Shown here piece after piece: positions 8,637 through 55,858 of a stretch of 64,000 nucleotides of DNA. Within the stretch, counting starts at the first letter, position 1. Each line of letters begins with the position of its first letter. Made by a program: the position numbers and the translations under genes. This DNA is from Planctomycetota bacterium (GTDB lineage Bacteria; Planctomycetota; PLA2; JAEUHO01), in assembly GCA_965222115.1 (NCBI GenBank), contig CBDCTJ010000007.1, positions 2,208,001 through 2,272,000 on the forward strand, in the 5' to 3' direction. Below the pieces are notes generated by a model, which was not told where the DNA came from, did not search any database, and worked only from the letters and a program-made list of their open reading frames with translations.

Positions 8637-8649
8637 CAGAGCCCCCTTT

Positions 8650-9156
8650 CTACTTCTCGTCTTCTTCGGGAAGTTTCTTCACCGAGAATTGTAGCTTGTA
8701 GACCTTGATGTCCTTGTGGGCGCACGCTTGCATCACCCACTGCACGTACTTCCACTTCGCGCCACGGTCGGCGTTGATCATGATCGGCACTTTGCTCGCG
8801 CCGTCTTCTTCACGCAGATCGGGGTCATTGCCAATCAGACCGCGCAGCGCGTCCTGAAGATTTTGAATGGCGTCGTCGGCGTCACCGGGATCTTCCGAGG
8901 AAAGATCAAACTCGCGATCGCGGAAAATGACCTTGCCGTCGCCCGTGAGGTTGACGGTAAAGCGCTTGACCTCGGCTTTGGGGTCTTCCTTGTCCTCATT
9001 GCCCATCGAGGCGATGGGAAGCTCCACCGGGAAGAACTCTTTCTGCGACAAGTCAATGGTGAGCATGAAAAACACGACCAAGAGGAAGGTCATGTCAATC
9101 ATGGGCGTCATGTTCATCTTGGCGTCTTCTGTTTCAATCAGAACAGGTGCTGCCAT
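8650..9156 (-). CDS. exbD: ExbD/TolR family protein (copy 1, canonical length)
   Basis: 'MNMTPMIDMTFLLVVFFML', 'VELPIA', 'IMINADRGAKWKYVQWVMQAC'. Confidence 0.92.
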   Translation of the reverse strand: MAAPVLIETEDAKMNMTPMIDMTFLLVVFFMLTIDLSQKEFFPVELPIASMGNEDKEDPKAEVKRFTVNLTGDGKVIFRDREFDLSSEDPGDADDAIQNLQDALRGLIGNDPDLREEDGASKVPIMINADRGAKWKYVQWVMQACAHKDIKVYKLQFSVKKLPEEDEK

Positions 9157-9266
9157 GCGTGGCTCCTCGATGTCGGGTCGGACGCCTGGAAATGATTCGC
9201 GCTTCTTGGTTTGTGGGTTTGTGCGCGGGGAGCGCGAACCCCCGCAACACTAGCGTATCAGGTCGT

Positions 9267-9959: not shown

Positions 9960-10369
9960 GGCCGCATGGACTCCGAAAACTGGGACCACGAGGGTTGGGT
10001 GAAAACGCGGAGGACTCCCTCGATTCCGTCCGCGACCAATACGTGAAATCCTGAACTGAATGTTCGTTGGTTGAAAATTCGTCGACCCGAGACGATTGAT
10101 TGGAGGGCGAGTGCTCCCAGCGTCGCTATCGCGCTACGAGAACCCGCCACCCAATTCGACGCGCGTCAGATGACGCTGCCGCCGATCTACCTGCCTCCGG
10201 GCGAGCCGAAGCGTACCCGATCGCAGGAAATGCCGCTACTTCCGGCGAGCCCGGATTAATCGTGAAGTACGCGCCGCGCCGTTTCCGGTGCGATGAACGT
10301 GGTTCATGAGCGTCTGGGATTCGATTGGATCTGGGATTGGATATCGCCCGGAATCGGATGTTGAGCGCC

Positions 10370-25654: not shown

Positions 25655-27673
25655 TTGTCGGTGCACGTTTCAAACCTCCGCCTGTTCATCACAACGCCCG
25701 GCGTGGCGGAACGTGTCTATGACTTGGTGGAGGGCGAGGCCATCTTTGGGCGCGACGAAAGCGTGACCATTCCGGTCGCAGATCGCACGTTGAGCCGCAA
25801 ACATTGCCGAATGTACATGGGGGCTGATGGCTGGCGCGTGACGGACCTCGGTTCAAAGAACGGGACGTTTCTAAATGGCGCTGTGATTCTCGACGAACGC
25901 GTGCGCTCCGGGGACAGCGTTGAGATTGGCGAGACGCGCATAGCCGTACACGACATTGAGACGACGGGTGCGGGCGCTGATATTCGCGCCCACGAACATT
26001 CGGCGCGCCTGTCAATTGAGAAGCCTGTCCCGCCGGGTCGTGCCGAGGCCGCCCACCACCGTGAGATTCGCGCGCTCAATCACCTCATGACGCTGAATGA
26101 GAAGATTAATGCGCTCGATAGCGAAGATCGATTGCTCGACGGCATCTTGGATGCCGCTATTGAACTGACTGAGGCCGCGCGCGGCTTTCTGCTAATTCGC
26201 CAAGAGGATCACTTTGTTGTGCGTCGCGCGCGTCTGCCCGATCACCGCGATATGGCCGATGCGGAAGGAAACTTTTCCGTGAGCGTTGCCACGGAAGTGA
26301 TTCGCAGCGGCAATGCCATGCTTTCTGAAGATCTGCAGCACGATCCCCGCTTTGAGGGGAGCGGAAGTGTGGCCAACTTGGACTTGCGCTCGCTCGTGTG
26401 TGTCCCCTTGCGCTCGTCCAAAGAAGTCTTTGGCGCTGTGTATCTCGACAATAGTTACGCCGAAGGGACGTTTGATGGTTGGGACGTGCGCATGCTCGAA
26501 GGCTTTGCGAGTCTCGCGTCGATTGCGATTCGCAACGCGAGGCAGCGCAAGGACATGGCGAAGCATCGGCGCGAAGCGGTGCGCCAAGCCCGTCGCATTG
26601 AACGCCTCAATGAACGTCTGCGTAAAGCGCTCAAGGTTCGCACCGACGCGCTTCGCCGCGCGCGTGAAGATCTCGCCAAGCAGGCCGATCAGTTTGGCTT
26701 GCGGTATCGCTACGAAAACGTGATTGGACGCAGTCCCGCCATGCAGGCCGTGTTGCGTACCGTGGATCGCATCACCGACCTCACCATTCCCGTCATGATC
26801 ATTGGTGAGTCCGGCACGGGCAAAGAACTCATTGCGCGAGCCATGCACTTCAACTCGGACCGTCGCGGTGAGCGATTGGTAAGCGAAAACTGCGCCGCCA
26901 TACCCGCCGCATTGGTCGAAAGTGAGTTCTTTGGTCACAAGAAGGGCGCGTTTACGGGCGCCGATCGCGATCACGTAGGGCTGTTTGAACAAGCCCATGC
27001 CGGCACGCTCTTCCTGGACGAGGTGGGGGAGATGCCCGCCGAACTCCAGAAGAAGTTCTTGCGTGTGTTGGAAGAAGGCAGCGTCCGTCGTTTGGGAAGC
27101 AAGCGCCTGCGGTCAATTGACGTACGACTCATCAGCGCCACCAACCGCAACATTGGGTCCATGTTGCAAAACGGACAGTTTCGAGAAGATCTCTATTACC
27201 GCATCGCCGGCGTCGTGATCGAGTTGCCGCCGCTGCGTGAACGCCGTCAAGACATTCCGGCGCTCGTGGCTCACTTCCTCGCCTCGGAAGGGGAAGAAGC
27301 CAGTCGCATCACCATCGATCGCGCCACGATGGATTTACTGGTGGCCTTTGACTGGCCCGGCAATGTCCGCGAACTTCGCAACGAAGTGCAGCGCCTCGTC
27401 GCCGTCCAGCGCGCGGGTGTTGTTCAACCGGCGCACTTAAGCGCACGCATTTTGAACTACGAGCCCAGCGATCCCGATGACGTACCCGAGGGCGGTCTCA
27501 AGACGATGGTGGAAGACTTGGAACGCCGCGTCCTGCGGGCCGCACTCACGCGCCATGAGTGGAATAAGAGCCGCACCGCGCGCGAACTCGGCCTCAGCCG
27601 CCTCGGCCTGCGCAAAAAGATCGAACGCTACGGCATCGACAGCGAAGAACCGCCCAAAGGTGTAAATGTGTAA
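25655..27673 (+). CDS. Sigma-54-dependent enhancer-binding protein with FHA, GAF, AAA+ and HTH domains
   Basis: FHA 'FGRD...LSRKHC...DLGSKNGT'; GAF 'LRSLVCVPL...GAVYLDN'; Walker A 'GESGTGKE'; GAFTGA; 'WPGNVREL'; HTH 'NKSRTARELGLSR'. Confidence 0.95.
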   Translation: MSVHVSNLRLFITTPGVAERVYDLVEGEAIFGRDESVTIPVADRTLSRKHCRMYMGADGWRVTDLGSKNGTFLNGAVILDERVRSGDSVEIGETRIAVHDIETTGAGADIRAHEHSARLSIEKPVPPGRAEAAHHREIRALNHLMTLNEKINALDSEDRLLDGILDAAIELTEAARGFLLIRQEDHFVVRRARLPDHRDMADAEGNFSVSVATEVIRSGNAMLSEDLQHDPRFEGSGSVANLDLRSLVCVPLRSSKEVFGAVYLDNSYAEGTFDGWDVRMLEGFASLASIAIRNARQRKDMAKHRREAVRQARRIERLNERLRKALKVRTDALRRAREDLAKQADQFGLRYRYENVIGRSPAMQAVLRTVDRITDLTIPVMIIGESGTGKELIARAMHFNSDRRGERLVSENCAAIPAALVESEFFGHKKGAFTGADRDHVGLFEQAHAGTLFLDEVGEMPAELQKKFLRVLEEGSVRRLGSKRLRSIDVRLISATNRNIGSMLQNGQFREDLYYRIAGVVIELPPLRERRQDIPALVAHFLASEGEEASRITIDRATMDLLVAFDWPGNVRELRNEVQRLVAVQRAGVVQPAHLSARILNYEPSDPDDVPEGGLKTMVEDLERRVLRAALTRHEWNKSRTARELGLSRLGLRKKIERYGIDSEEPPKGVNV

Positions 27674-34659: not shown

Positions 34660-34676
34660 TAGGCATGGGTGTTGCA
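34660..34676 (+). promoter_or_regulatory. Candidate sigma-54 (-24/-12) promoter for the FHA-pilM-pilin operon
   Basis: TAGGCATGGGTGTTGCA: GG at 34662-63, exactly 10 nt, then GC at 34674-75; close to consensus TGGCAC-N5-TTGCW. Confidence 0.6.
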
Positions 34677-34965
34677 GATTGACGGTCCCGCTTCGCTTCG
34701 CGAAATCAACGTGACGCCCGTCCGCCCGTCCGCCCGTCCCGCGCCCATCCGAAGCCATTCGCATATGCGAAGGCATGGCATCGTGCAGGCATTGGTGCCG
34801 TCGTGCCGCGCGCATACCGTTGGCCGTTCGAGGACGCATAAGAGAAGCAGAGCCCAGGCATATCGAGCCCGGCGCGGCAACGCATCGGCGCACGTGTGTC
34901 AACCAAGGCCCCTGTGTCAGCCAAGACCGGTGCCCCGTTCGGGGTCCCGGCGTTTTGGAGAAGCT

Positions 34966-37470
34966 ATGGCGCGTTTGACCTACAAGGTCGACGACGAAGA
35001 ACGAGTCGTAGAACTTGACCCCAACAATGCGGTGCGCATTGGGCGCGATGAAGCCTGTACCATCCCGCTTCCCGATGTTCGCGGTGTCTCGCGGCGGCAC
35101 TGTCAAATCATGGCGCTTCCGCATCAAGGGCGAACGGTTTGGGAGTTGACCGATCTCGGCGCCACCAACAAGACCCACGTCAATGGCAAGCCCGCCGATC
35201 GAAAAGTGCTGTCAAGCGGCGACACCATTCAAGTGGGCGAGTGCGAGTTTGCATTTGCGGATGAAGAAGAAGAGAAGCAACTGCGCGAAGCCGGTAGCCA
35301 GGGCGTGTGTTATCTCGAATGGGTTACCGGCGGACAGAAGGGCGCGAAAGTTTGGCTCGACAAGCCCCGCGTGACGATGGGTCGTCGCGACTCGAGCACC
35401 ATTCCCCTTGATGACCGAATGGCCTCGGGTCACCACGCCGAAATCACCAAAGACCTCAACGGTTTCACGATTCGCGATATGGGTTCAACCAACGGCACGT
35501 TGGTCAACGGCGAACCCACGACCGAGGCTCCGCTCAATCACGGGACGCGTATTCGCATCGGCAACAGTCGCTTCGTTTTCAAAGACCCCTCCATGAAAGA
35601 CATCGAAGTCGAACTCTCGCAGTTCGATGATGACGACGGTTGGGGGATGATGGGCGACATCGATCTCACCAAGGCTCGTGGGTCGTATGGCGGATTGCTC
35701 GCCAGTCTGTTGCTATTGGGTCTGGTTGGAGCGGGTGCCTATTTCTTCTTGAACGCAAAGAAGAAGACCAACATCGCAGGCGTTACGGCCGACACGCTCG
35801 TCACCAATCACAACTTTGACGACGCCCAAAATTTGCTGTGGTCCGAAGAGGGCGGCGGAGATGACGTGGGCGTGGTGATACGTGGCAAGGGCAAGAAGGC
35901 CGCGCTGGTTGTGACCGGGAACTCCGCCGAGGACGAAGGAAGCGCAGCAAAATCACGTATCGTCGTGTATGACGAGTCGTTCGCCGCGCTCGATCAACCG
36001 CTTCATATTCAGGCCAAGTCTCGCAGCAGTGATCCCGCATCGGGCATGGTGGGTATTTGGCGCAGCGGTGCAGCGAGTGCCACCAGTCTCACGCGCACGA
36101 TCATGCTTCAGCCCACCGAAGGTGACACCGTTGATGTCGTTCTCTCGCGTCCGCCGTGGGCCGACTCGTTCACATTGGGTGTGCTGGTACAGCCCGATGC
36201 TTCCGTGACCATCGACAATGTGTTGGTGGACTACAATGCAGATCTAGACGCCAAGGCGATTGACATTGAGTGTGCTGGCGATCCCACGGCCCACGTCAAC
36301 AGTGACGGCACCATCGACATTCTCAATAGTGCAGTCGTCATGGCCGCCGGTTGTCAGCCCGTTGCGCAAGACGAACGCGGTGAACTGCTTACACGCTTCA
36401 TGGTTGACGGCGCGCCGTCGGCGTCGGGTGAGACGGTTTCGATTCGTGGAACATTGTCTAGCGGAGAATCGACGGTACCTGTCTCCATGAAGATTGCCTC
36501 CACGCCCGATGGACTTCAGATTTCGATCGAAGGCCAGGGCGCCAAGGCCGTTGGGCTTCGTACGCTTCAACCGCTTGCCAATCTCTCGGCGGGTGTACAC
36601 GTCCTCACAACATCGGGGCCGCGTACGTTGGGTGCTGAAGCGGGTTCGAAGGCCGAGCAGGTACGAAAGACGCTTGCGGGCGAGCCTAAGGCAACCGCGC
36701 AAAGCCCGGTTACGCTCGTGACGATTGCTTCATCGGCATCGGGCGATGAAGCACCCGCGCCCACCACGCTCTCCATCGCCGATACGCTCGACCCCTCCAT
36801 GTTGGCCATCACCAATGTGGCCTCGGGTGCATCGGCCACGTTGGATGTGGTGACCAACTACCGCGCGCAGGATGAAAAGGCGCGCACCGCCTATGATCAG
36901 GCCAAAGTCGTGCTGGCCAACAAACCCATCGTGGGCATCACGCAGATGCGAGCCGTCGCGCAAGAGTACCCGTTTGCCGAAGCGGTTCGCGACAGTGCGT
37001 TGAAGGACGCCGCCGACACCGAGAAGAAGGTGCGGCAGCAGGTTCAGGCGTTTCGCGAGTCGTTGCATCGCTTCCGCATCTTCCAAAGTGAAGAAGCGCT
37101 TACAGAGCTTACGACGCTACAGTCCGCGCTCGAATCGAGCGTTGAGGGATTGACGCCCGAGCAAGGGGCTGTGGTGGGCGAAGTCCACGATTTGCTGAAG
37201 GCCACCAACGAAGCAAAGGCCGAGCACTATCGCAAGAACGCGGGGCTCGAAATGAGTCGCCTCGAACGCTTCGCCAATGTGCTCAAGGGCACCGATGGCT
37301 ACAAACCTATGGCCGCCCTGCTCTTCCAGACCATCCAGTCGCGTTTCGCTGCACTGGGTGATGACGAGTCGTTTCGCGCGCGCATGGAAGCCGCAAAGGC
37401 CAGTTTGAAAGAGCTTACGGGTGACCCCAACGTAAACACGGCCCTGCCGCCACCCGTGGAGGGGAAGTAG
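34966..37470 (+). CDS. Double-FHA-domain bitopic membrane protein with large extracytoplasmic region
   Basis: ATG 34966 with GGAG; FHA1 'IGRD...VSRRHC...DLGATNKTHVNG'; FHA2 'MGRR...ASGHHA...DMGSTNGTLVNG'; TM 'GGLLASLLLLGLVGAGAYFFL'; then beta-rich and helical regions. Confidence 0.88.
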   Translation: MARLTYKVDDEERVVELDPNNAVRIGRDEACTIPLPDVRGVSRRHCQIMALPHQGRTVWELTDLGATNKTHVNGKPADRKVLSSGDTIQVGECEFAFADEEEEKQLREAGSQGVCYLEWVTGGQKGAKVWLDKPRVTMGRRDSSTIPLDDRMASGHHAEITKDLNGFTIRDMGSTNGTLVNGEPTTEAPLNHGTRIRIGNSRFVFKDPSMKDIEVELSQFDDDDGWGMMGDIDLTKARGSYGGLLASLLLLGLVGAGAYFFLNAKKKTNIAGVTADTLVTNHNFDDAQNLLWSEEGGGDDVGVVIRGKGKKAALVVTGNSAEDEGSAAKSRIVVYDESFAALDQPLHIQAKSRSSDPASGMVGIWRSGAASATSLTRTIMLQPTEGDTVDVVLSRPPWADSFTLGVLVQPDASVTIDNVLVDYNADLDAKAIDIECAGDPTAHVNSDGTIDILNSAVVMAAGCQPVAQDERGELLTRFMVDGAPSASGETVSIRGTLSSGESTVPVSMKIASTPDGLQISIEGQGAKAVGLRTLQPLANLSAGVHVLTTSGPRTLGAEAGSKAEQVRKTLAGEPKATAQSPVTLVTIASSASGDEAPAPTTLSIADTLDPSMLAITNVASGASATLDVVTNYRAQDEKARTAYDQAKVVLANKPIVGITQMRAVAQEYPFAEAVRDSALKDAADTEKKVRQQVQAFRESLHRFRIFQSEEALTELTTLQSALESSVEGLTPEQGAVVGEVHDLLKATNEAKAEHYRKNAGLEMSRLERFANVLKGTDGYKPMAALLFQTIQSRFAALGDDESFRARMEAAKASLKELTGDPNVNTALPPPVEGK

Positions 37471-43500: not shown

Positions 43501-43629
43501 CACCGCGACGACATCTCAACCTTCAAGCGCTCCAATGGATCTGCGGCGTTGTGGATCGGGGGCTTCTCAACGCAAGCCCAAAAATTCGACATCCGCGTGG
43601 GCCAAATCCGCGTGATTCGTCGCCGATAG
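40510..43629 (+). CDS. Large membrane-anchored TPR protein with C-terminal beta-sandwich-like domain
   Basis: Two N-terminal TM segments, a Pro-rich and acidic linker, TPRs 'EALPYYERAIQLDSRNARAIIGRG' and 'AMLVRGAVFYAKGELEAA', and a beta-rich C-terminus. Confidence 0.8.
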   Translation: MVSLHSTLASAFDGVLLTPVFAGAFTTFLLFVALGIGALFFTAALDGSLGKEKALLLYAGLVLLLTMFVIGPAAAKGAKKGRAGAEDKVPASELDQQGNPFHREVLGPDVEFATENDSGDDSRNIFQKYSDTRPLAPIALATPPWLKLDFHLPPTIPGPAPGARHVLRGQRPGPSASEGEEGDDEDGESMPEGDGSLGEVPTASFTTYEPQPADVYDWVLQGSRPQYIYIRAINAGSGWVGEGAPGFRDLLWSLAKPSGSDRDRLNVRFAVIGGESEAAKRLAPEAIVKARGSSVTTARATDKPRWFLRRSVDNLYLAATRSNGITDLSGATDAGALTRAAEEMAKVGATGKEFGEGWRRAAELLEAALTIAEKSGSTAQQTAILTNLLKAYRATNDEQSELRVLAKYARTSPTASEAWSSIGDLFVTALNLPKEALPYYERAIQLDSRNARAIIGRGRALSLAGRYDDGLDVLRNTPGGNPDAEAARAMAQLRVGKLDEAKSTAERVLSSNADHAQAMLVRGAVFYAKGELEAALPVFQQVLVMPSAQAWRAMAAYNLGLTATRMNRFAMASAAFDAADKALLFGSRSALSPEETVAPSLGRAFLALAKGDEADITTQLDSARNEAPRSAYVDLFAAQYFAGQPLSQSAAAFRHLTDAFRKSKGYGEIDGWMGKVCSELGVLEGAEGGGESRAGNFERAVAFMKRIADREDKRDRDAFAMRVREAMVRINRTDLPRRRRYTEALDAVNMVLKKNQRREEPSALAVRAYCNYQLADYDQCIRDFDNILSTVPADATDWRRAFRDYAEEQRAAVNKWRSLEVKTVTFDQDQLPRDLWRPDESGRVKIRSGDGWLHFVGQSSRDGSLEKPVVAVNNPTLFDKNSFVELAVVLKIPKMDRSAAVNNVTFGIEVMRASRRGRSSSSKSMGGIGIFYDKGRVAARSAKGSEDAFKDAVIHRLLDDGAEVDWPDGNDGEVEVRFVREVDEKGTMVVYIDGKEFHRDDISTFKRSNGSAALWIGGFSTQAQKFDIRVGQIRVIRRR

Positions 43630-43646
43630 AAATAGGTAGGTCGGTT

Positions 43647-44342
43647 ATGCAGCAACAAGCAACGAATGAGCAAGGCACGAACGGATGTCGTCCCGCGCGC
43701 GAAGCGGGATTTTCATTCATCGAGATCTTGGTCGTCATGGGCATCATTGCCGTGCTCACCGGCGGCGTGCTGGTGGTGGTCCAGATCATGGGCAAGAAAG
43801 GACCTCAGTTCGATACCCAGACTCGGATGCAGAATCTCGATGCGCTGATTCAGAAATTCAAAATGGACACGGGCACGCATCCGCCCAGCAAAGTCAGCAA
43901 GATTGGCTACATCGTTGGGAGCGAGAAGAAAGCCAAGGGCGAAAACCGCGTCAATGAGGGCATCGAGGCGCTCTACCAAGCACTCACCTGGGAGGGCATC
44001 AAGACAAACTACGACTTCAAGGAAGTTGAACTTGGCAACACCGACGATGACAAGTTGCGTAAAGCGGTGAACAAGCTGAATCAAGCCGAGCTGTATGAGA
44101 TCTTGGATGGCTATGGCAATCCGTTTGTCTACATCCCTAGTGAGGACTACGTGAAGGCCTTTGAAGGGGGCGTGCCCTATATATCGGTCAATGAAGAGGG
44201 TGAAGAAGACGAGCCTCTTGCCAAGCCCCACAAGCGCAGCGACGGCACCGGCTTTGTCAACCCCAGCAGCTATCAGCTCTACAGCATGGGCCCTGACGGC
44301 GAGCCCAATACCGAAGACGACATCGCACCCTGGAAGGAATAA
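43647..44342 (+). CDS. Type IV prepilin, GspG-like major pseudopilin
   Basis: Class III signal 'AREAG|FSFIEILVVMGIIAVL'; 'LDGYGNPFVY' and 'YQLYSMGPDGEPNTEDDIAPW' (GspG Ca-binding-loop pattern); ATG 43647. Confidence 0.88.
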   Translation: MQQQATNEQGTNGCRPAREAGFSFIEILVVMGIIAVLTGGVLVVVQIMGKKGPQFDTQTRMQNLDALIQKFKMDTGTHPPSKVSKIGYIVGSEKKAKGENRVNEGIEALYQALTWEGIKTNYDFKEVELGNTDDDKLRKAVNKLNQAELYEILDGYGNPFVYIPSEDYVKAFEGGVPYISVNEEGEEDEPLAKPHKRSDGTGFVNPSSYQLYSMGPDGEPNTEDDIAPWKE

Positions 44343-44347: not shown

Positions 44348-45553
44348 CTGAAGCGACGCCCCGCCACCTTCCGATTCACTTCACACGCGCCTGCTGCCAG
44401 TCGCGAACGGGGATTTTCGTTTCTTGAGCTGCTGCTCGTCATGGCTGTCATGGCCATGTTGATGGGACTAGCGATTGGGCTCATTTCGCCCGCAGGCGCA
44501 ACGCTCATCAAACAGTCGCAATCCATCCTCGAAGAGACCGCGCGCAAATGTATAGGCGCCAGCGTTGGCAATCGACGCGCCGTATTTCAGCTGCGCCAAC
44601 TGGACGACGAACTCGGGTCCCCCTATCTCCAAGTGTCGGGCACCATTGCACAGACCGTGCTTACCCACAATTTCGAAACGCCCACCGAGGCCAGCTTGGG
44701 CACGATTGCCGAAATGGAAGGCACGGTAAAGAGCATCTCCGACGGCTACGTGGGCAACGCGGCACAGTTCGCGGGCGGGGGCGTGCTGCGATTTTCTGCC
44801 CAACCCAAGTTTGCCATGACCGAGGGCTTTGCACTCGACGTGTGGGTGCGACCCGAAGGCGGCAGCCAGGAGATGGATATTGTTGTGGGCGACTCAAGCT
44901 ATCGCCTCTCCTTGGTTCGCCCAGGCAAAGACGAGCGATACGACGTCAAGCTCTCACTCCTGCTACGGCCCGTGGGTGCCGACCCGCGCGAGACCGCAGC
45001 GCAGGAAGTTTCGTTTGCAACCAAGGACGCGCCGGTTCGCGTAAACGGTCGGTGGTCGCATATTGAAGTGGAATACGACGGTCGTGATGTGTCGCTGCGT
45101 GTCAATGGCATGGAGCGCATCACCACGGGGCGTAAGAAACGCACCGAGGGCAGCGTCCAACTTTCGGAGTTGCGTCGCATTGCCGTGCCCGAACTTGGCG
45201 CCGTGGCGCTTTCCATTTCCTCCACCCGGCGTCCGTTTACCGGCGCCATGGACATGTTGCAGTTGCGTGGCACATTTCGGTCACGTGAGTTGGAACGAAG
45301 GCTTGCACCGGAACTCACCATCATCTCGCCCACGTTGCCCGTGCGCGTTGTCTATGTAAACGGTCAAATGGACCCGACCTTGCACTCGGCGCCGGTTATT
45401 ATGCGTTTTCGCGACGAGAACGAGCCCGACGATCTCCCCTTGCGCCTCATACTTGGACCCTACGGCACGGTAGAGGCCGGCTTAGGCGATGCCGAAACGA
45501 GTTCACGCGCCAAGCCGCGCGTCTCGAGTTCGCGAAAGAAGGAGGGCTCGTAA
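44348..45553 (+). CDS. Prepilin with LamG/concanavalin A-like domain; probable CTG start
   Basis: In frame upstream of the ORF-track ATG (44441) the sequence reads 'RERG|FSFLELLLVM' (44402-44443). CTG 44348 follows AAGGA. LamG-like 'FALDVWVRP', 'RWSHIEVEYDGRDVSLRVNG', 'FTGAMD'. Confidence 0.78.
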   Translation: MKRRPATFRFTSHAPAASRERGFSFLELLLVMAVMAMLMGLAIGLISPAGATLIKQSQSILEETARKCIGASVGNRRAVFQLRQLDDELGSPYLQVSGTIAQTVLTHNFETPTEASLGTIAEMEGTVKSISDGYVGNAAQFAGGGVLRFSAQPKFAMTEGFALDVWVRPEGGSQEMDIVVGDSSYRLSLVRPGKDERYDVKLSLLLRPVGADPRETAAQEVSFATKDAPVRVNGRWSHIEVEYDGRDVSLRVNGMERITTGRKKRTEGSVQLSELRRIAVPELGAVALSISSTRRPFTGAMDMLQLRGTFRSRELERRLAPELTIISPTLPVRVVYVNGQMDPTLHSAPVIMRFRDENEPDDLPLRLILGPYGTVEAGLGDAETSSRAKPRVSSSRKKEGS

Positions 45554-47279: not shown

Positions 47280-47496
47280 GTTACCCAGCCCACCATCTTA
47301 TTCGGTTGTTTGTAGCCGGTTCGCGGATCGAGACACGTTCTGTTGAAAAGCGGTGTGTCCCAGATCTGTTTTCTTCGGATACACCTAATAAGGATCGAGC
47401 CGGAGCTGTTCCGCTTGCGAACGTTCCTCAGTTTGTGAGCGCGAGTCAAGTTTGTGCTGTGATCGTTTCGATCGCTCCCGAAAGAAAGGTGATGTC

Positions 47497-49047
47497 ATGA
47501 CACCTGAAATGAACAACAAGCGCGCCCGAACGGTTGTGCCCGGTGATGGCTATGTTCTTGGAGATGGCTACGAGCCCGGCAACCGCCGAGTTCGTAGCGT
47601 GATGGTTGCCATCGCGACGCTCATGCTCCTGGGCACGATGTTTCTTCATACGGGCGATGCCTATTCGGACGTCGTGAGACTTCGCACCGGGGAGTCCATC
47701 AAGGGTCGTCTCCTGCAGTCGTCCAGCAATCCCGATGTGTTGGTCGTCGAGGACTTCCTCAGCGGCGCCATGCGTAAGCTCTCGTGGAGCGTCGTCTCGC
47801 CTGCCGACCGCGATCGTATCCAAGAAGACTGGGGCTGGAAAAACAAGAACAAGCGTGTGGTCAAGGCCCACATTGTTCGCCACCGCCTGAGCAATGGCGA
47901 CGTCGTGGAAGTCGAGGGACTCGTTGAGCAGGACGACGCGGCGGGCATCAAGATTCGATTTGATGGCCGCGTCGAGTTTATTCCCCGCGATCGCGTGGTG
48001 GGCGAAGTGATCGAAACCGAACTCGACCCGCGCGACATCTGGAGCCCTGATCAGCTCTACCAACGCTTCATGGATGAGTTGGCCAAGGAAGATGGCGTAG
48101 ATATCAACAACCTCAATTCGATTCAGCGATGGCGTTGCGCGGAAATGGCTGTTTGGATTGGCAAATTGAAAGAAGCGCTTGAACACTATGAAGCGTGCGC
48201 GGCCGACGAGGAATTCACACGGGCTGGCGTGGCCGCGGCGCGGGCCATCAATGTCAAAGCGTTGTTGGCCGATGCCGCAGCACTCTCGAAGCTGCGTCAA
48301 ATTGCGCGCACCATAAGCATCGACAAATTCGGTCGCGCAAAGACGATGATCGAAGCGTTCGCGGAAGAGCATCCCGAGTCGCGTAAGCCCGTTCTCGAGA
48401 AGCTTGAGAAGACCAAACAACGGCTTGAGACCGAGCGCCTGGAGTTCTTCCAGCGCATGGCCGCCAATCGTTTCGTCAAGATCGTCGAGAAGATGATCTC
48501 CGTGAAGACCCGAGATCGAGATTTGACGTTGAGCGATGCGACCAACTGGGCGCGCAAAGAGCTGGTTGATGAAGCATTCAAGGTTCTCGCGGCCAACATG
48601 TCAAAACATGACGAGGTAACGCCGGAACAGGCTCGCACGTTCTGGGACGGTCGTAAGAAACGTAGGAATTGGCACTCGGCAACCTATGGCGCCGGCACCT
48701 TTGTTGTGCGCCCCCCCAAGGTGAAGCAGCCCAAGCGACGGAGAAGTTCATCTCGTAAGCGCAAGAAGTCCAGCGGCCCGCGCGTGAAGATCGATATTCC
48801 CAAGCCACCTACCAAGGAACAGTTTTGGGAACGCGCCAAGGGCGCCGCGCGCTCGTCTTGGTTGATGGCATTTTTCGTTGAGAACTCCGATCTCTTTGAG
48901 ATTCATCCCAAGGAGCGATTGTCCAAGTGCCCGCTTTGTAACGGCGTAGGTCTACGGACAAAGTCCATGAGCAATGGCACCCAGATCCAACACCTGTGTG
49001 AGCGTTGTGCCGGCGCCCAAATGGATGTGCGCATTCGATTCCGCTAG
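47497..49047 (+). CDS. Exported hypothetical protein with C-terminal DnaJ-type zinc-finger-like motif
   Basis: ATG 47497 after AAGGT; hydrophobic signal ending 'DAYS-DVVRLRTGESIKG'; C-terminus 'CPLCNGVG...CERCAG'. Confidence 0.75.
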   Translation: MTPEMNNKRARTVVPGDGYVLGDGYEPGNRRVRSVMVAIATLMLLGTMFLHTGDAYSDVVRLRTGESIKGRLLQSSSNPDVLVVEDFLSGAMRKLSWSVVSPADRDRIQEDWGWKNKNKRVVKAHIVRHRLSNGDVVEVEGLVEQDDAAGIKIRFDGRVEFIPRDRVVGEVIETELDPRDIWSPDQLYQRFMDELAKEDGVDINNLNSIQRWRCAEMAVWIGKLKEALEHYEACAADEEFTRAGVAAARAINVKALLADAAALSKLRQIARTISIDKFGRAKTMIEAFAEEHPESRKPVLEKLEKTKQRLETERLEFFQRMAANRFVKIVEKMISVKTRDRDLTLSDATNWARKELVDEAFKVLAANMSKHDEVTPEQARTFWDGRKKRRNWHSATYGAGTFVVRPPKVKQPKRRRSSSRKRKKSSGPRVKIDIPKPPTKEQFWERAKGAARSSWLMAFFVENSDLFEIHPKERLSKCPLCNGVGLRTKSMSNGTQIQHLCERCAGAQMDVRIRFR

Positions 49048-49107: not shown

Positions 49108-49749
49108 ATGCGTACGCCCATTCAATTGTTCGTGACGAGACTTCTGCTCGTGGGATTCCTCGCGGCGAGTTTGGTTGCGGGAAGTCCCGTTCATGCCGAA
49201 GACGCCGTTCGAATCCGCCCGCCATCGGTGGCCGATCTTGGGGACCTGGCCGAGCAAGTCATTAAGGTCACCAAGGACCTCGACGATCTCGTCAATCTGG
49301 CGGCCAAAGATCCTCGGGCCGTGCGCGTGGATATGTATATGGCCTACACGCCGAGCGTGATGAAGTCGCGAAAGGCAAAGGACGGGGCGGTATTCGCTGA
49401 AGAACTCGTCGAGATCATGGAAGACAAGGACGCCGAGTTTACCCTCCGTCGAAGTGCACGCGACGCGCTCTATCACGGCACGATGATTTCCCAAGACCCC
49501 GAACTCAGCGGTGACATCAAGAAGCGCAGTGGGACCAATCGTGGCTACTTCTATCGCACAAAGGTGGTTCCATTTCTCACGGATAAGCGTGATGCCCGGC
49601 TTCGTAAGCTCACTCAAGAACTACTGACCCGGGTGTTTGGCTCGATGCAACATGAACGTGCCATCGCCAAGTATGATCCGATCAAGGCCGGATCCAAGAC
49701 GTGGTCGCCCGCTCGCAAGGCGTGGGCGAAGCACTTGCTCAAGCGCTAA
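49108..49749 (+). CDS. Exported hypothetical protein (alpha-helical)
   Basis: Signal peptide 'RLLLVGFLAASLVAGSPVHA'; same strand as the operon, coding-like codon usage. Confidence 0.7.
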   Translation: MRTPIQLFVTRLLLVGFLAASLVAGSPVHAEDAVRIRPPSVADLGDLAEQVIKVTKDLDDLVNLAAKDPRAVRVDMYMAYTPSVMKSRKAKDGAVFAEELVEIMEDKDAEFTLRRSARDALYHGTMISQDPELSGDIKKRSGTNRGYFYRTKVVPFLTDKRDARLRKLTQELLTRVFGSMQHERAIAKYDPIKAGSKTWSPARKAWAKHLLKR

Positions 49750-49761: not shown

Positions 49762-50772
49762 ATGAAGGAAATCGGTACGAAACGCGCGTCGTGGCGTCTC
49801 AAAGTCGATCTCCGGGTACGCATCATTGCCCTCGTCGTTGCGTCGTTGACAGTTACGCCGCTCACAATGGGGGGGTGCGGCCGCGCCGATACGACACCTC
49901 CATCGCGTGAAGCCCAAGTCAGCCCCGTGTACGGCAGTGAGAGCGGCGAAGATGCGTTTGCACCGGTGGCAACACTGGATGGCAGGCCAATAAGCAAGGG
50001 GCAGTTGGCCGACTTCTGGTTTGAGCGTTATCCCGAAGAGTACGCCCGAACCGTACAGAGTTTTGTCGATCGCAAACTCATCTACCGAGAAGCCACGCGG
50101 CATGGGATGAAGGTGCCGCGTAGCGTGTTGGAACGCGCGGTTGCGAACGAGGTTGCGGCGCGGCGAAAGCAAATCGCTGCGCGCTACGGTCCACGGGCGC
50201 GCCTGGAAGACGAGGTGCGTCGCGCCTATGGCGTGGAACTCGCGGTGTGGACAAACAACATTTTGCGACGACGCATCTACGAACGGCTGCTACTGGAACG
50301 CGTCGTGCGTTTACAGACACGCAGCGCGCTTCGCGTTCATGCGCGTGTCATCGTGCTCCTGACCGAGGCGGATGCCCGGCGCGTGGCAGCCAAAATCCGG
50401 CGTGGCGCCGACTTTTCGTTGGTTGCTCTGCGCGAATCCAAAGATCCCACGGGAAAAGCGGGCGGGGACCTTCCGCCGATTGCCCGCGGAGATCTTGCCC
50501 ACCCTCAAGTTGAGTCGCGCCTGTTTGCGGCATCCCCCGGCGATCTCGTTGGGCCGCTTCGCGTTCTGGTCGAAGGTCGCCCTCAATTTCACCTCTACAA
50601 AGTGATTGCCCGGCACCCGCCGTGGTCGGGCGACTTGGCCGCGCTTGAAAGGGACCTAAGCGAGCAGCCCGTCCGGCCGGCCGAAGTGGATCGTTGGCGC
50701 GCGCGCCTGCATCGGGAGACGGGGCTCACACTGTTTCGCCCCGATGGAACGCGGTGGGTGCGCCCAAAGTAG
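49762..50772 (+). CDS. PpiC/parvulin-type peptidyl-prolyl isomerase (PrsA/SurA-like), probable lipoprotein
   Basis: 'VATLDGRPIS', 'VHARVI...GADFSLVALRESKDPTGKAGGDL...VGP...FHLYKV'; lipobox-like 'MGGC'. Confidence 0.85.
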   Translation: MKEIGTKRASWRLKVDLRVRIIALVVASLTVTPLTMGGCGRADTTPPSREAQVSPVYGSESGEDAFAPVATLDGRPISKGQLADFWFERYPEEYARTVQSFVDRKLIYREATRHGMKVPRSVLERAVANEVAARRKQIAARYGPRARLEDEVRRAYGVELAVWTNNILRRRIYERLLLERVVRLQTRSALRVHARVIVLLTEADARRVAAKIRRGADFSLVALRESKDPTGKAGGDLPPIARGDLAHPQVESRLFAASPGDLVGPLRVLVEGRPQFHLYKVIARHPPWSGDLAALERDLSEQPVRPAEVDRWRARLHRETGLTLFRPDGTRWVRPK

Positions 50773-51940: not shown

Positions 51941-54900
51941 ATGGCTAGTTTCAAGAAGACCTACAAGCGCTACGAGCGAGCCTTCCTCCTTGGATTGGTG
52001 TTCCTATTGCTTGCCACATTCTCCATCGGTGGCGCCATGTCGTGCGACCAGCAGACGGGGCCCGCGATGGAGGCCTACGCGGGTTCGTTCAACGTTCCGG
52101 GCGGCGGTGAAGCTGAAGTAGACGAAGACGACTGGAATCAGGCTTTTCTGAATGTGCGCGCATTGCAGGCGTCAACCGGCACGTTGACGGCCGAGTACGC
52201 CGACTTCTTTGATGGCCGTGATACGACCGATCTCCGACACGCGACATGGGTTCAACTTCTGGGCACCAAGCTTGGTAAGGCGGCAGGCTACAAGGCCGGT
52301 AAGAGCCAAGTCGATCAGGCGGTTCGCGATCTCGTTGGCGGTCGCTGGGCACGCCAATCGCAGCGCGTATTCGATGATCAGTCCTATAGCGACTTTCTTC
52401 GCAACCAAGTACGGATGACACAAAGTGAGTTTGAAGAACTCATGGGTGACGTCGTCGTGCGCGACCAGTTCATTACGCCGCTCATCGAGAGCGCCAAGTA
52501 TCAATTCGCCATGCCTGAAGTTTTTGAAGAGTGGAAGCACCAGCGCGAGCGCGTCAATCTCGAGTTCGTGTCGCTTCCCGCGGGACCCATGGAAGCGAGA
52601 GTTGCCAAGCAAGAGGCCACCCGCGAGACGATTCAAGAGGAAATCACCCGTCTCCGTGAGTTGTCGCTTGTGGCGCGCAACATTCGAACGGCGTCGGCGC
52701 AAATCGATTCAGCATTCAAGAAGAACGGCACGCTGCCCGCCGATTTCACGAAGCTGCGACCGGGATCCACGGTTCCCAAAGACCCGTGGGGCACCGAACT
52801 GGCGTACAAGGTGGACGGCGAATCCTACACGCTGCGATCCGCGGGTCCGGACAAGTCACTTGGCAATGAGGACGACGTTACGCTGATCGACCAGCGTGCC
52901 TTGCAGAGTTATGCGCGCATGCTTCGCGTTGGTAAGGCGCTACAGGCATGGAAACGCGTTAAAGACGCCTGGCCAGAGGACCTCGAGACGTTGAAAACGG
53001 CGCCCAATGCCGAAACCACCGCCCCGCTTCCCAAGACGGAGCCTCTTGTCGATGGGTGGAAGCGCGAACTCGTCTATGTGGCGCCCACGGGCGATAGCCC
53101 AGCAGTCGTTTCGTCGGTGGGCAACGACGGCGAAGCGGGCACGGACGATGACTATCGCCTTGAAGTTACCGACGATCCGCTTCACTTGGCCCCGTTTGGG
53201 CGCTACGCCTTCCGTTCCGACAGTAACGCGCCCAAGGGTGCCGTAGCCACTCCAAAGGACGGATGGGACCGGCCGTTTCGACTGTCGCTTGCGGATCCCG
53301 CGCGTTTGATGTGGGAAGTGCGAAGCGCCGGCGCCGACGGAACCTTTGACAATGACGATGATCTGACCACCCCCAACCAGGCCGAGATCGCGCGCTTCTA
53401 CGCCCAGCCCGATACACGGCGCCGGTTCCGTGAGCCCCTTCGACGCGAGTTCGAAGCGCTCTACGTGCATCTACCCAATCTAAGCGACGGCATTCTTGAG
53501 GTGCTCTGGAAGAAGTTCCCTGAGGCGCGCCCCGCCGATGAGGAGACGGTGTTCGAGCATTGGAAGAGCCACCGCGGTGGCGACGCGCTTTCGATCTACA
53601 ACGCCAAGGATCCAAAGGATGCCGAAGAAGGCCACGGCGCGGCGACGATGAAAGAGGTTGCGCCCGATACTCAAGTCAATCTGCGCCCTTCGCCCAGCGT
53701 GTTTCCCGATTTGGGCCATCGCAAGCCCGAAGAAACAGGTCCGAAGGATAACGAATCGAACGATGGCGAGTCTAAGGATGACGAGTCCGAGGATAAGAAA
53801 GACGACGAAAAGGACGCTACGGATCCCGATGAAGAACTCCGGAAAGAGTTCGTGGATAAGGGTTGGCGTGAAATCGTGATTCGCGAGATGTTTGTTGAGT
53901 CGTTGCTCAACGAGCTACTGAAGAAGCTTCAAGCAAACCAACGTGAGATTCGCGACTGGGACAAGAAGTACGGTTCGAAGTCGGGTGACGACACGTCCGA
54001 TGACAAGGAATCCGACAAGAAGTCCGGTGAGAATGGCGAGTCCAAGGACGAAAAGAAGGCACCACCCCCGCGCCCCAAAGAACTCACCATGGAAGGCCTC
54101 TTCGAGGACGACCTGAGAGATGCGGTCCCTACGCCGGAAGAAGAAGAAAAGGGCCACCGCTCGTTTACCTACTTCAAGACCACGGGCGGCGTCACGCGCG
54201 ATGAGTGGGAGGCGCTGCCCTTCCTTGGTGATCCGAATCTGAACATGACGCTTGGCACACTCAGCAGTGATGGGCAATACGCAAGTATTCCGCTTCAATT
54301 GCATAGCCGAACCACCAAGGCGCTCATTCGTCAGATCAAGCTTACGCCTGCCCACGATCCCAAGTTTGAGGACATCAAGAACAAAGTGTTTGAAGCCTTT
54401 GTGTCAAAGCGCGCACTTGACTATGCGTTCAAGGAACTTGGTAAGCTCAAGACTGCGATTCAAACGGCGGAAGATGAAGACGCCGAGAAGGGCGCCGAGA
54501 AGGCGCTCAAGGAATTCGCTGAGCGTGTTGGCGTTCCCTACTTCCGTGAGACAACGGGCATGTTTATTGGGGCCCGTCCGCCGCAGCAGACCGAACTTGA
54601 AGGCGAAGACGACGATCAAGACAAGAAGAAGCGGATCTACACCCCCGAGGAAAAGAAGATCCGTCGTCGGAACTTCATTTTGCGTACGGGCTACGCGACG
54701 GTGCGAAAGGGAACGTCCCAGCAAGACGAAATTGAAGCCGCACCCGGTACGTTTGGACGTCGCGTGTTGCGCGATGGCGGTGAAGATAGCACCAACAGTG
54801 CGTACCTCGTCCGTGTGAAAGAACGCCAGTTCCCCGATCCCGCGGAGTTCTCATCGCGCGATTACCTGATGGAGCTCTACCGCAAGGTGTATGGCACGCA

Positions 54901-55045
54901 GGGGCGCAACCAGCGCATCGCCCAGCGCGACGGTACGTTTTTCAAGAGCTTGCATCGTTACACGCAGGACTATCAGTGGCTCAAGTCCACCTTCGATGTG
55001 GAATTGGATGATGGCAAGGACCTGCTGGCCCCCAAAACGCGGTAG
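51941..55045 (+). CDS. PpiD/SurA_N-like membrane-anchored periplasmic protein with three inserted GspG-like head modules
   Basis: N-terminal anchor 'AFLLGLVFLLLATFSIGG'; PpiD-like 'SEFEELMGD...EWKHQRERVNLEFV', 'EIARFY...FREP', 'PKFEDIKNKV'; three 'D(P/G)W...S.G.D......DD' modules; RBS GGAG. Confidence 0.7.
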   Translation: MASFKKTYKRYERAFLLGLVFLLLATFSIGGAMSCDQQTGPAMEAYAGSFNVPGGGEAEVDEDDWNQAFLNVRALQASTGTLTAEYADFFDGRDTTDLRHATWVQLLGTKLGKAAGYKAGKSQVDQAVRDLVGGRWARQSQRVFDDQSYSDFLRNQVRMTQSEFEELMGDVVVRDQFITPLIESAKYQFAMPEVFEEWKHQRERVNLEFVSLPAGPMEARVAKQEATRETIQEEITRLRELSLVARNIRTASAQIDSAFKKNGTLPADFTKLRPGSTVPKDPWGTELAYKVDGESYTLRSAGPDKSLGNEDDVTLIDQRALQSYARMLRVGKALQAWKRVKDAWPEDLETLKTAPNAETTAPLPKTEPLVDGWKRELVYVAPTGDSPAVVSSVGNDGEAGTDDDYRLEVTDDPLHLAPFGRYAFRSDSNAPKGAVATPKDGWDRPFRLSLADPARLMWEVRSAGADGTFDNDDDLTTPNQAEIARFYAQPDTRRRFREPLRREFEALYVHLPNLSDGILEVLWKKFPEARPADEETVFEHWKSHRGGDALSIYNAKDPKDAEEGHGAATMKEVAPDTQVNLRPSPSVFPDLGHRKPEETGPKDNESNDGESKDDESEDKKDDEKDATDPDEELRKEFVDKGWREIVIREMFVESLLNELLKKLQANQREIRDWDKKYGSKSGDDTSDDKESDKKSGENGESKDEKKAPPPRPKELTMEGLFEDDLRDAVPTPEEEEKGHRSFTYFKTTGGVTRDEWEALPFLGDPNLNMTLGTLSSDGQYASIPLQLHSRTTKALIRQIKLTPAHDPKFEDIKNKVFEAFVSKRALDYAFKELGKLKTAIQTAEDEDAEKGAEKALKEFAERVGVPYFRETTGMFIGARPPQQTELEGEDDDQDKKKRIYTPEEKKIRRRNFILRTGYATVRKGTSQQDEIEAAPGTFGRRVLRDGGEDSTNSAYLVRVKERQFPDPAEFSSRDYLMELYRKVYGTQGRNQRIAQRDGTFFKSLHRYTQDYQWLKSTFDVELDDGKDLLAPKTR

Positions 55046-55069: not shown

Positions 55070-55103
55070 CTAACCCGGATTATTCATAAACAGTCCGGGC
55101 TAG
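55070..55103. repeat. Short palindromic element / bidirectional terminator between convergent genes
   Basis: ctaacccggatt-attcataaac-agtccgggctag; its end supplies the yidD TAG stop. Confidence 0.55.
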
Positions 55104-55390
55104 GATTTGGGTAGCGCCTTGGGTACGGGATCGTACCCACCGCCGCCACCCGGACCCGGTCGGCAGCGTGTGAGCCGCCCGAACCCCATCGTTACGCCCC
55201 GCACAACGCCGTGACGCTCAACCGCTTCCTTCATGTATTCCGAACATGTGGGCGTAAAGCGACACGCGCTTGGTAGCAGTGGTGAGATCAGCACCTTGTA
55301 CATATGCAGTACGAGAACAACGACGCTCCTAAACGGGCGCGACCACCACAGCGGTGCCGGCGTGGATGCAGGCTGGGTCTCGTGAGTCAT
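55100..55390 (-). CDS. yidD: Membrane protein insertion efficiency factor YidD
   Basis: 'YKVLISPLLPSACRFTPTCSEY..EAV..HG...G......RL.RC.P....GYDPVP'. Confidence 0.95.
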   Translation of the reverse strand: MTHETQPASTPAPLWWSRPFRSVVVLVLHMYKVLISPLLPSACRFTPTCSEYMKEAVERHGVVRGVTMGFGRLTRCRPGPGGGGGYDPVPKALPKS

Positions 55391-55791
55391 TTCCCCTTCC
55401 TACGCGGACGGTGACGTGGGCGAGCCGGTTGCTTGGTGAGTGTGCGTTCCAAATCGTGTGCAATGCCTTCAAGGGTTGGCTTGACGAGACTCCGTTTCGG
55501 CGACACAAGGAAGTCGTAGGCACCCAGGCGATCTTGGCGATGGCGAAATGCTTCTCGTACCAACCGGCGAAATCGGTTTCGTTTCACCGCCGTGCCATAC
55601 GCACGGGGCGTCGCGCAACCCATGCGGGGATATCCAACCTCGTTTGCAAATCGCCGCACAACGACCTCTCGCCCGGGAAAAACATCGCCTCGGGTCGTCA
55701 CATTGTGAAAGGACGTCCGATGCCGCAACCGTGCACGTCGCTTGAAACGTCGTGACGGAGGCGGTTCTGGGGTGGCCGATGGATCACTCAC
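55387..55791 (-). CDS. rnpA: Ribonuclease P protein component
   Basis: 'RFKRRARLR...F', RNR motif 'GTAVKRNRFRRLVREAFR'; ATGA overlap with yidD; GTG 55791 inferred as start. Confidence 0.92.
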   Translation of the reverse strand: MSDPSATPEPPPSRRFKRRARLRHRTSFHNVTTRGDVFPGREVVVRRFANEVGYPRMGCATPRAYGTAVKRNRFRRLVREAFRHRQDRLGAYDFLVSPKRSLVKPTLEGIAHDLERTLTKQPARPRHRPRRKGK

Positions 55792-55858
55792 GGCGCGTGA
55801 GTATCCCCGCAATAGTGGCAAGGCACACGATTCCACGCCCGGCGGGTAAGATTCGGGC

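Follow-up and report, generated by a model that had tools for sequence, protein, structure and literature searches.

A PpiD-like chaperone gene with an inserted cassette

A stretch of 64,000 nucleotides from a Planctomycetota bacterium (assembly GCA_965222115.1, contig CBDCTJ010000007.1, positions 2,208,001 to 2,272,000 of the forward strand), referred to here as the window, contains a gene for a PpiD-like chaperone into which a cassette of three GspG-type pseudopilin heads is inserted. The gene is located on the forward strand at positions 51941..55045 and consists of an open reading frame (ORF) of 1034 amino acids (aa), the product of which is designated P0001. The N-terminus of P0001 is kept across 14 aligned homologues, and the start codon is therefore considered correct. 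The combination of PpiD/SurA-like chaperone and GspG heads is real, conserved and undescribed in the literature searched. Neither for a PpiD/SurA-T2SSG fusion nor for leaderless GspG heads could a description be found in full-text literature searches, in line with the first-pass annotation of this DNA, which had regarded the fusion as undescribed. Domain shuffling into a chaperone loop is no new principle.

The protein starts with a cytoplasmic tail rich in K and R (aa 1-13), followed by a signal-anchor transmembrane (TM) helix at approximately aa 14-34 (51980..52042; all features of P0001 are on the forward strand). In the AlphaFold2 model, the N-terminus forms a helix spanning aa 2-34. The anchor is present in 14 of 14 aligned members and is the best-conserved region of the protein (mean pairwise identity 0.53). 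Following the positive-inside rule, P0001 is predicted to adopt an N-in/C-out topology with its bulk in the periplasm. No N_methyl (PF07963) match was obtained for P0001 at E ≤ 1 in the Pfam scan, and the prepilin cleavage/N-methylation motif is absent. A cysteine (Cys35, 52043-52045) directly follows the TM helix and was found in all 14 aligned members with small register shifts. The residues in front of it (for example AMS-C, ALK-C, AMQ-C) do not match a canonical lipobox.

The remaining protein can be divided into three parts. The predicted N-terminal chaperone region of SurA-N/PpiD type (aa 48-221, 52082..52603) was defined by SurA_N_3 and the alignment to a sister family, and is closed by the strand RVNLEFVSLP immediately before the insertion. 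The inserted cassette of three leaderless GspG-type heads (aa 222-478, 52604..53374) was delimited as a gap in the comparison with the sister family, and the C-terminal scaffold (aa 479-1018, 53375..54994) is common to P0001 and this module-less family. Two linkers with a predicted local distance difference test (pLDDT) value below 50 interrupt the scaffold. The first is an acidic, low-complexity disordered linker (aa 593-626, 53717..53818) that differs in length among the homologues, and 34 D/E residues are found within aa 601-700. The second is acidic and lysine-rich (aa 681-705, 53981..54055), with a gap fraction of 0.42 across the family. The AlphaFold2 model, which was built on the 14-sequence alignment A1, has a mean pLDDT of 80.3 and a predicted template modeling score (pTM) of 0.59, and the C-terminal scaffold reaches a pLDDT of 80-94 over most of its length.

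GspG-type head modules and calcium loops

The Pfam family T2SSG (PF08334) matches the whole P0001 sequence in two stretches with 58.4 bits (E 8.5e-16), well above the gathering cutoff of 21. The modules were additionally scored as separate segments (aa 241-325, 326-415 and 416-500). The first and the second segment exceed the cutoff on their own with 25.9 and 30.2 bits, the latter covering model positions 21-101 of 108, and the third stays under it (15.2 bits, E 0.023). All 14 aligned members match T2SSG.

Module 1 (aa 241-320, 52661..52900) was assigned by T2SSG, a profile match and the secondary structure of the model, where it comprises the end of a long helix (215-262), the DPWG motif, a beta-hairpin (288-300) and the calcium (Ca) loop. 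The helix 215-262 is the counterpart of the pilin alpha1C helix. Module 2 (aa 321-410, 52901..53170), assigned by T2SSG and the alignment to XcpT and EpsG over almost their entire soluble domain, is the most complete GspG head, with a helix (315-341), DGW, strands at 378-409 and a Ca loop in the model. Module 3 (aa 437-478, 53249..53374) is a truncated head, assigned by the sub-cutoff T2SSG match and by invariant residues. It consists of DGW, a beta-hairpin (447-462) and a Ca loop without a helix of its own. Its residues D440, W442, S462, G464, D466, G467 and D473 are invariant in the 14 sequences, and it is the best-conserved part of the cassette (mean pairwise identity 0.48). The motif D-x-W...S-x-G-x-D...D-D is invariant or nearly so in each of the three modules in alignment A1.

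The profile of the family (A1) matches eight distinct solved GspG-type sequences with E-values between 1.7e-5 and 0.012. The best match was XcpT (2kep, E 1.7e-5), followed by EpsG (3gn9, 3fu1 and 4lw9; E 2.5-4.3e-5), GspG (29jd, E 2.3e-4; match of module 1 at profile positions 248-317) and PulG (1t92, E 3e-3), with weaker values for 3g20 and 5wda. The alignments to the solved heads span the alpha1C helix, the alpha-beta loop, DPWG, the beta-sheet and the Ca loop. A single-sequence search of the PDB sequences with P0001 gave no match. In the structural comparison of the whole model with the PDB using Foldseek, EpsG (3fu1) was found with a probability of 0.99 and a TM-score to the target of 0.58, PulG (5o2y) with 0.98 and a root mean square deviation of 3.2 over 95 columns, and XcpT (2kep) with 0.82.

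In the available text of a study on OutG and PulG, the Ca2+ ion is described as coordinated by side chains (D117, T/S122, D125 and possibly D124) together with two backbone carbonyls (PMC13081927). The ligand spacing given there, D-x4-[T/N]-x-D-D in the comparison made here, was found in all three modules: D304-x4-N309-x-D311-D312 in loop 1 (52850..52876), D396-x4-T401-x-D403-D404 in loop 2 (53126..53152) and D466-x4-N471-x-D473-D474 in loop 3 (53336..53362). In the 14 sequences D304, D311 and D312 of the first loop, D396, D403 and D404 of the second and D466 and D473 of the third show no substitution, and at least 90% of the sequences have D474. By sequence, the modules are thus GspG-type heads with predicted Ca sites, the prediction of the sites being taken from the motif only.

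The first-pass annotation had placed three GspG head modules without a prepilin leader at 52670-53370. This interval corresponds to aa 244-477 and is the module block, all sequence strings quoted in that annotation are present in the translation of 51941-55045, and both the presence of three heads and the lack of a leader (a K/R-rich stretch and a hydrophobic helix form the N-terminus instead) were borne out, to a degree that greatly exceeds what chance would produce. The AlphaFold prediction of the protein alone, which had been suggested as a check, yielded a good model that matches PpiD as well as GspG heads.

The heads share with GspG, PulG, EpsG, XcpT and OutG the head fold, the alpha1C helix, DPWG, the beta-sheet and the C-terminal Ca loop D-x4-[T/S]-x-D-D, in which the T/S ligand position is replaced by N in modules 1 and 3 of P0001. 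A homologue, P0003, is named 'MAG: type II secretion system protein GspG [Planctomycetota bacterium]' by the NCBI pipeline, and the T2SSG match of P0001 passes its cutoff, so that the protein could be read as a genuine, unusually long GspG major pseudopilin. GspG pseudopilins, however, are stand-alone proteins of about 140 aa with a class III signal peptide and an N-methylated alpha1N helix, none of which applies to P0001. Its three heads are arranged in tandem inside another protein (aa 241-478) and have neither the prepilin leader nor the hydrophobic helix used for polymerisation (alpha1N), and about 75% of the protein is PpiD-like scaffold. The GspG equivalog TIGR01710 (NCBIfam) is not reached either: against a cutoff of 88.85, P0001 obtains 37.9 bits, P0003 30.6 bits and P0012, another homologue, 37.4 bits. 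A true GspG is therefore considered extremely improbable, and the 'GspG' label of P0003 is a misnomer.

Relationship of the scaffold to PpiD

The scaffold of P0001 is PpiD/SurA-like with a colinear domain order, based on sister-family alignments and a fold match. Within the family, SurA_N_3 matches 6 of the 14 members at E ≤ 0.01 (best E 4e-08). The flanks of the cassette had been described in the first-pass annotation as following the PpiD/SurA_N pattern, which holds at the level of the family and not for P0001 on its own (see below). Among 473 PDB matches at E ≤ 10 in the Foldseek search, the only one at E ≤ 0.001 was PpiD in the PpiD-YfgM complex (8zht_A; E 1.4e-4, probability 0.99, 1051 alignment columns). 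SurA (1m5y, probability 0.97) and PrsA entries rank after PpiD; these chaperones are soluble or lipid-anchored and have active parvulin domains, unlike P0001.

Among the weak phmmer matches of P0001, a protein of 641 aa (P0145) was found that contains SurA_N_3 above the cutoff and no T2SSG. P0145 weakly matches the NCBIfam model PRK10788, a peptidylprolyl isomerase model of 626 positions, which we take to be the PpiD model. Comparison of the family alignment A1 with P0145 by hhalign resulted in a probability of 98.7% (E 3.3e-16). P0145 belongs to a Planctomycetota sister family of 10 proteins with a length of 628-689 aa, all with PF13624 (SurA_N_3), one of which is named 'SurA N-terminal domain-containing protein [Planctomycetota bacterium]'. 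None of the 10 has a precomputed parvulin domain. The sister family has the same N-terminal anchor and is homologous to P0001 over nearly the complete length: hhalign of A1 against the sister profile A5 gave a probability of 99.85% and an E-value of 1.6e-30 over 611 columns (Q12-984/T16-653).

In this alignment the module block forms a single gap, as it does in the alignment to P0145. At the junction, four sister proteins have 6 residues, compared to 256 in P0001 and 248 in both P0003 and P0012. The flanks are conserved on either side of the junction, with ...RERVNLEFVSLP in front of the cassette and NQAEIARFY...REFEALYVHLP at the restart of the C-terminal scaffold. A search of the 64-kb window with P0145 using tblastn revealed no module-less paralogue.

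The sister profile was further aligned to E. coli PpiD, the sequence of which was taken from the annotated coding sequence. This resulted in a probability of 63.3% and an E-value of 6.9e-5 over 387 colinear columns (20-536/17-421). Via the sister family, the N-terminal chaperone region of P0001 aligns to PpiD 17-~200, and the cassette junction corresponds to PpiD ~196-207. In the nested domain scheme of PpiD, as given in the available part of the publication, the N-terminal piece of the 'second domain' extends from Q187 to F223 (PMC9643414). According to this alignment and this scheme, the cassette is inserted in a loop belonging to the N-terminal piece of the PpiD 'second domain'. A replacement of the parvulin domain by the cassette was considered and rejected, because the parvulin position lies downstream of the junction, which maps to the PpiD ~196-207 loop.

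P0001 thus resembles PpiD (8zht) in having one N-terminal TM anchor (type II topology), a probable SurA-N-like region and a long periplasmic scaffold. It differs from PpiD in the undetectable parvulin, in about 400 additional residues, in the two acidic disordered linkers and in the cassette of three GspG heads at the ~196-207 loop.

Several results weigh against this assignment. The SurA_N_3 scores of P0001 itself, 17.5 bits for the whole protein and 22.5 bits for aa 1-240 (match aa 16-176), are under the Pfam cutoff of 27.2. The direct hhalign comparison of A1 with the single E. coli PpiD sequence was weak (probability 20.6%, 67 columns, Q773-842/PpiD 331-397), and for this reason the link to PpiD is a two-step chain plus a fold match; the chain runs through the sister family, whose own link to PpiD has a probability of 63%. 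The global TM-scores to 8zht are only 0.17 and 0.23, which is expected for a flexible multidomain model, yet no proof of the same fold. No Rotamase/parvulin family was detected with Pfam at E ≤ 10 in any of six segments of P0001, and the alignment of aa 706-815 to 12 real parvulin proteins reached a probability of 0.2% with hhalign. For the GspG heads, the Foldseek E-values in the whole-model search were weak (0.23-1.4), because the query is long. No YfgM-like partner was recognized among the window neighbors examined. Finally, Sec association, chaperone activity and Ca binding would be attributed to P0001 by homology only.

A degenerate parvulin remnant at aa 717-802 would be indicated by position only, through the weak alignment to the end of the PpiD parvulin (20.6%), and the isolated model of this region was poor (pLDDT 59). 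In a protein atlas, the whole P0001 scored 0.84-0.86 to SurA_N clusters of Planctomycetota and Verrucomicrobiota, which are leads only, and the cassette alone gave no usable match.

Origin of the cassette and leaderless GspG heads

The cassette is colinear with stand-alone proteins that contain three heads. The match to P0071 (278 aa) covers all three modules in one high-scoring segment pair (HSP; E 1e-12, Q67-263/T70-274), and P0076 was found with an E-value of 9e-12. Between the cassette and the stand-alone three-head proteins, the identity is 26-31%. P0071, P0076 and P0086 have a length of about 275 aa with three T2SSG stretches each. They share with the cassette the number of heads, a similar total length and the missing prepilin leader. 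Unlike the heads of P0001, which are embedded in a chaperone, they exist as free proteins, secreted or anchored, that carry an ordinary signal peptide. No paper on stand-alone leaderless tandem-head proteins was found in the literature searches.

Beyond family members and fragments, the best phmmer matches that cover only the modules are leaderless proteins. A prepilin-type motif within the first 80 aa was identified in only 6 of 87 weaker matches (P0071-P0157). Most of them carry an ordinary signal peptide, a lipoprotein-like signal or a TM anchor, together with one to four Ca-loop motifs. When 24 of the weaker matches were analyzed with Pfam at E ≤ 0.001, T2SSG was present in 19 and N_methyl in none. 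Similarly, 43 out of 59 relatives of P0071 carry PF08334 and 5 carry PF07963 (N_methyl). These relatives are named 'hypothetical', 'GspG' (one from Thermoanaerobaculia) or 'DUF4190 domain-containing protein [Phycisphaeraceae]'. Leaderless T2SSG heads were also found fused to Peptidase_M48 (P0116), HEAT repeats (P0155), FecR (P0093) and DUF5763 (P0113), and many further matches have an N-terminal NTLGLVGFILSxCLSPIGL-like motif ahead of one or two heads. The fused proteins and those of the latter type are a set of undescribed periplasmic architectures.

For comparison, the GspG-like pseudopilin of the window was analyzed (43647..44342 on the forward strand, ORF 43551-44342). It was identified by N_methyl (26.4 bits) and T2SSG (19.6 bits, just below the cutoff of 21). 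A resemblance between the modules and the head of this local pilin had been noted previously. The strings on which it was based are present in the ORF; the likeness is limited to the motif, as the best HSP of the cassette in a BLASTP comparison covers the Ca loop only (11 of 23 identities, E 0.003). The local pseudopilin has a long insertion between the DGYGNPFVY motif and the Ca loop. This insertion lowers its T2SSG score below the cutoff, and therefore the chaperone modules outscore the real pilin as 'GspG'. Judged by sequence comparison, the cassette is far closer to the stand-alone secreted three-head proteins than to the local pilin. The simplest reading is that a free three-head periplasmic protein was captured by the chaperone.

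Distribution and conservation of the family

In a word-indexed search of 5.8 billion proteins, 13 full-length relatives of P0001 were identified, with a length of 974-1098 aa and an identity of 29-73%. With phmmer, 1.84 billion cluster representatives were searched exhaustively, which gave 149 matches at E ≤ 1e-3, 45 of them at E ≤ 1e-30. Both searches combined yielded 38 proteins of at least 900 aa. A search of one genome per GTDB species with a single peptide pattern, by which distant members may be missed, detected 13 loci, all in metagenome-assembled genomes (MAGs) of Planctomycetota.

Using a strict regular expression for the Ca loop, at least three copies were counted in 29 of the 38 full-length members, two copies in 8 and one copy in 1; some of the loops missed by the expression are visibly variant loops. 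P0013 and P0039 have four Ca loops, with a fourth module between modules 1 and 2 and about 100 additional residues in P0013. The copy number of the cassette therefore varies within the family. The mean pairwise identity is 0.39 for the cassette, for the N-domain and for aa 813-1018. In the aligned sequences the cassette is accordingly as well conserved as the scaffold.

Proposed function of the cassette

Taken as a whole, P0001 is on balance best explained as a PpiD-type chaperone whose captured cassette acts as a Ca-stabilized extra arm. By analogy to PpiD, as described in the available part of the literature, P0001 would reside on the periplasmic side of the inner membrane, probably in the vicinity of SecYEG, where it would capture and release newly exported polypeptides (PMC9643414). 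The cassette, presumably derived by capture from a secreted three-head protein of the stand-alone type, would project from the second domain, beside the membrane-proximal NC domain, and would be stabilized by Ca2+. It could offer clients or partners a surface to bind to, or extend the reach of the chaperone in the periplasm, which is described as enlarged in the Planctomycetota in the accessible text of PMC11958385. Most likely it is an extra binding arm for clients or partners, and it would not be a filament subunit.

The nearest rival to this explanation is that the cassette is a passive Ca-stabilized spacer or stability module, which lengthens or stiffens the chaperone or makes its stability dependent on Ca. 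The Ca site of the major pseudopilins, as far as described in the text available, chiefly governs the stability of the subunit (PMC13081927), the invariant residues of the modules are those of the structural motif itself (D-x-W...S-x-G-x-D...DD), and the number of modules varies, with four Ca loops in P0013 and P0039. An enlarged planctomycetal periplasm (PMC11958385, available part) would also fit a spacer. However, the cassette is conserved to the same degree as the chaperone domains, and 29 of 38 members have retained three modules, more than a spacer would require. The acidic linkers, as true spacers, vary freely. A merely passive role is therefore regarded as possible but doubtful, and the binding arm is retained as the preferred explanation.

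PpiD, an accessory of the Sec translocon, is conserved but still poorly understood, and doubts have been raised even about what its parvulin domain does. The family described here represents a lineage that naturally has no detectable parvulin and in which another well-folded cassette was grafted in a defined loop and kept under constraint. It could thus help to identify the surfaces of PpiD-type chaperones at which accessory domains are tolerated or used. At the same time, the GspG head, usually seen as a filament subunit only, circulates as a leaderless periplasmic domain, in tandem arrays and in fusions to protease, FecR and HEAT domains that are routinely mislabeled 'GspG' by annotation pipelines. 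For annotation, a T2SSG match without a prepilin leader does not equal a pseudopilin.

Genomic neighborhood and synteny

The gene of P0001 is immediately preceded by a ScpB gene (51026). Two genes upstream of P0001, a separate parvulin peptidyl-prolyl isomerase (PPIase) gene was identified on the forward strand (49762-50772, Rotamase 31.4 bits), which is present in 11 loci. The N-terminus of its product contains a hydrophobic stretch ending in ...LTMGGC, which may be a lipoprotein signal of PrsA-like type. PPIase function may be supplied in trans by this product. The ScpB and PPIase genes separate the P0001 gene from pilin-like genes (43551, 45553 and 46815), which are located 5-8 kb upstream on the same strand. 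Upstream of these, a PilM-like gene (37514) is followed by a gene for a tetratricopeptide repeat (TPR) protein. Downstream of P0001, yidD and rnpA (55100-55836) are encoded on the reverse strand, convergent to the P0001 gene. According to its Pfam description, the yidD product is a membrane-insertion factor, and yidD is the only suggestive neighbor of P0001; since it is convergent, it is not co-transcribed with P0001. A histidine kinase with a sigma-54 regulator, HtrA and LexA are also neighbors. Neither a sigma-70-like site nor a convincing terminator was found at the ends of the P0001 gene in the promoter and terminator scan.

The gene order as a whole is maintained across the 13 loci. ScpB is located upstream in 12 of 12 with enough flanking sequence, and YidD and RnpA are located downstream in 11 of 11 with downstream flank. 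Pilin-like genes were found in all nine loci in which the upstream flank is 5.7 kb or longer, kinase and regulator likewise in 9 of 9, and HtrA and LexA are kept too. The identity across loci is 27-37% for the PpiD-like protein, 53-72% for ScpB and 73-83% for LexA. Since this conservation covers housekeeping genes as much as pilus genes, a specific link of the P0001 gene to the pilus cannot be derived from synteny.

This neighborhood bears on the question of whether P0001 is a chaperone dedicated to pilins, in which the heads would mimic pseudopilin heads and recognize new prepilins or dock on the assembly platform, thereby coupling Sec export to the neighboring pilus or type II secretion system-like machine. 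Prepilins are inserted through the signal recognition particle and Sec, so a chaperone on the Sec side would meet them. The heads are genuinely of GspG type with intact Ca loops, the pilin-like genes are encoded nearby on the same strand and conserved in all loci with sufficient flank, and two secretin genes and the PilM-like gene are present in the window. On the other hand, the conserved order includes ScpB, YidD, RnpA, kinase and regulator, HtrA and LexA to the same extent, and the ScpB and PPIase genes intervene before the pilin genes. The match to the local pilin is restricted to the Ca loop (E 0.003), compared to E 1e-12 for the secreted three-head proteins, and the occurrence of leaderless heads on Peptidase_M48, HEAT, FecR and other proteins points to a periplasmic module of general use. 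As the alpha1N helix is missing, the usual way of joining a filament is not open to the heads. A dedicated pilin chaperone is thus unlikely. A prediction of the complex between the cassette (aa 241-480) and the soluble head of the local pseudopilin, made without controls, reached a score of 0.00 against a mark of 0.32 and speaks neither for nor against binding.

A more specific form of this idea, that the heads are functional pilin decoys by which the Sec-associated chaperone binds nascent prepilins head to head or docks on the assembly platform, is considered quite improbable. To our knowledge, a handover chaperone from Sec to the pseudopilus as a class of pilus-biogenesis factor is not known in any bacterium. 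If the heads recognize pilins, Sec export and pilus assembly would be connected in a new way, and if they are decoys, leaderless GspG heads including the M48, FecR and HEAT fusions would represent a general pilin-recognition module of envelope quality control. Capping of the pseudopilus by incorporation of the cassette is unlikely, because the modules are without the hydrophobic N-terminal polymerisation helix. A binding arm for clients or partners of a PpiD-type chaperone remains the preferred explanation.

Further observations in the window

Usually yidC follows rnpA and yidD in the gene order. It is absent from this position here; in all 11 loci for which the downstream flank is available, the position is occupied by the convergent PpiD-like gene.

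Between the pilin genes and the PPIase, two conserved ORFs without an assigned family are encoded on the forward strand. The first (47452-49047, 531 aa) is syntenic in 11 of 13 loci, with L004, L012 and L013 lacking enough flanking sequence, and has a zinc-finger-like CxxC...CxxC motif at its C-terminus (DnaJ_CXXCXGXG, 18.8 bits, under the cutoff). The second (49108-49749, 213 aa) starts with a signal-like segment. It was considered as a YfgM-like partner and rejected, as the hhalign comparison with E. coli YfgM gave a probability of 2.1%. Its profile showed only insignificant similarities to alpha-repeat/HEAT-like PDB entries, with E-values of 0.085 or worse.

Amid the pilin-like genes, a protein with a LamG/concanavalin-like domain and a hydrophobic N-terminus is encoded on the forward strand (44441-45553), which may be a modular minor pilin with a lectin-type domain.

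Farther upstream, two large TPR-secretin genes with N-terminal TPR regions are located on the reverse strand (2205-5123 and 16173-19439). They flank the genes for ExbB and three ExbD-like proteins (7277-9989, reverse strand), which represents an unusual pairing of secretin and ExbBD. A sulfatase (5373-7202) and a TPR/AAA_13 protein of 1239 aa (11843-15562), both on the reverse strand, are also encoded between the secretin genes.

On the forward strand, an activator of FHA-GAF-sigma54 architecture is encoded at 25655-27673 and a protein of 933 aa with two FHA domains at 34669-37470, upstream of the PilM-like gene. The presence of these FHA proteins suggests a phospho-threonine-dependent control of the pilus-like cluster.

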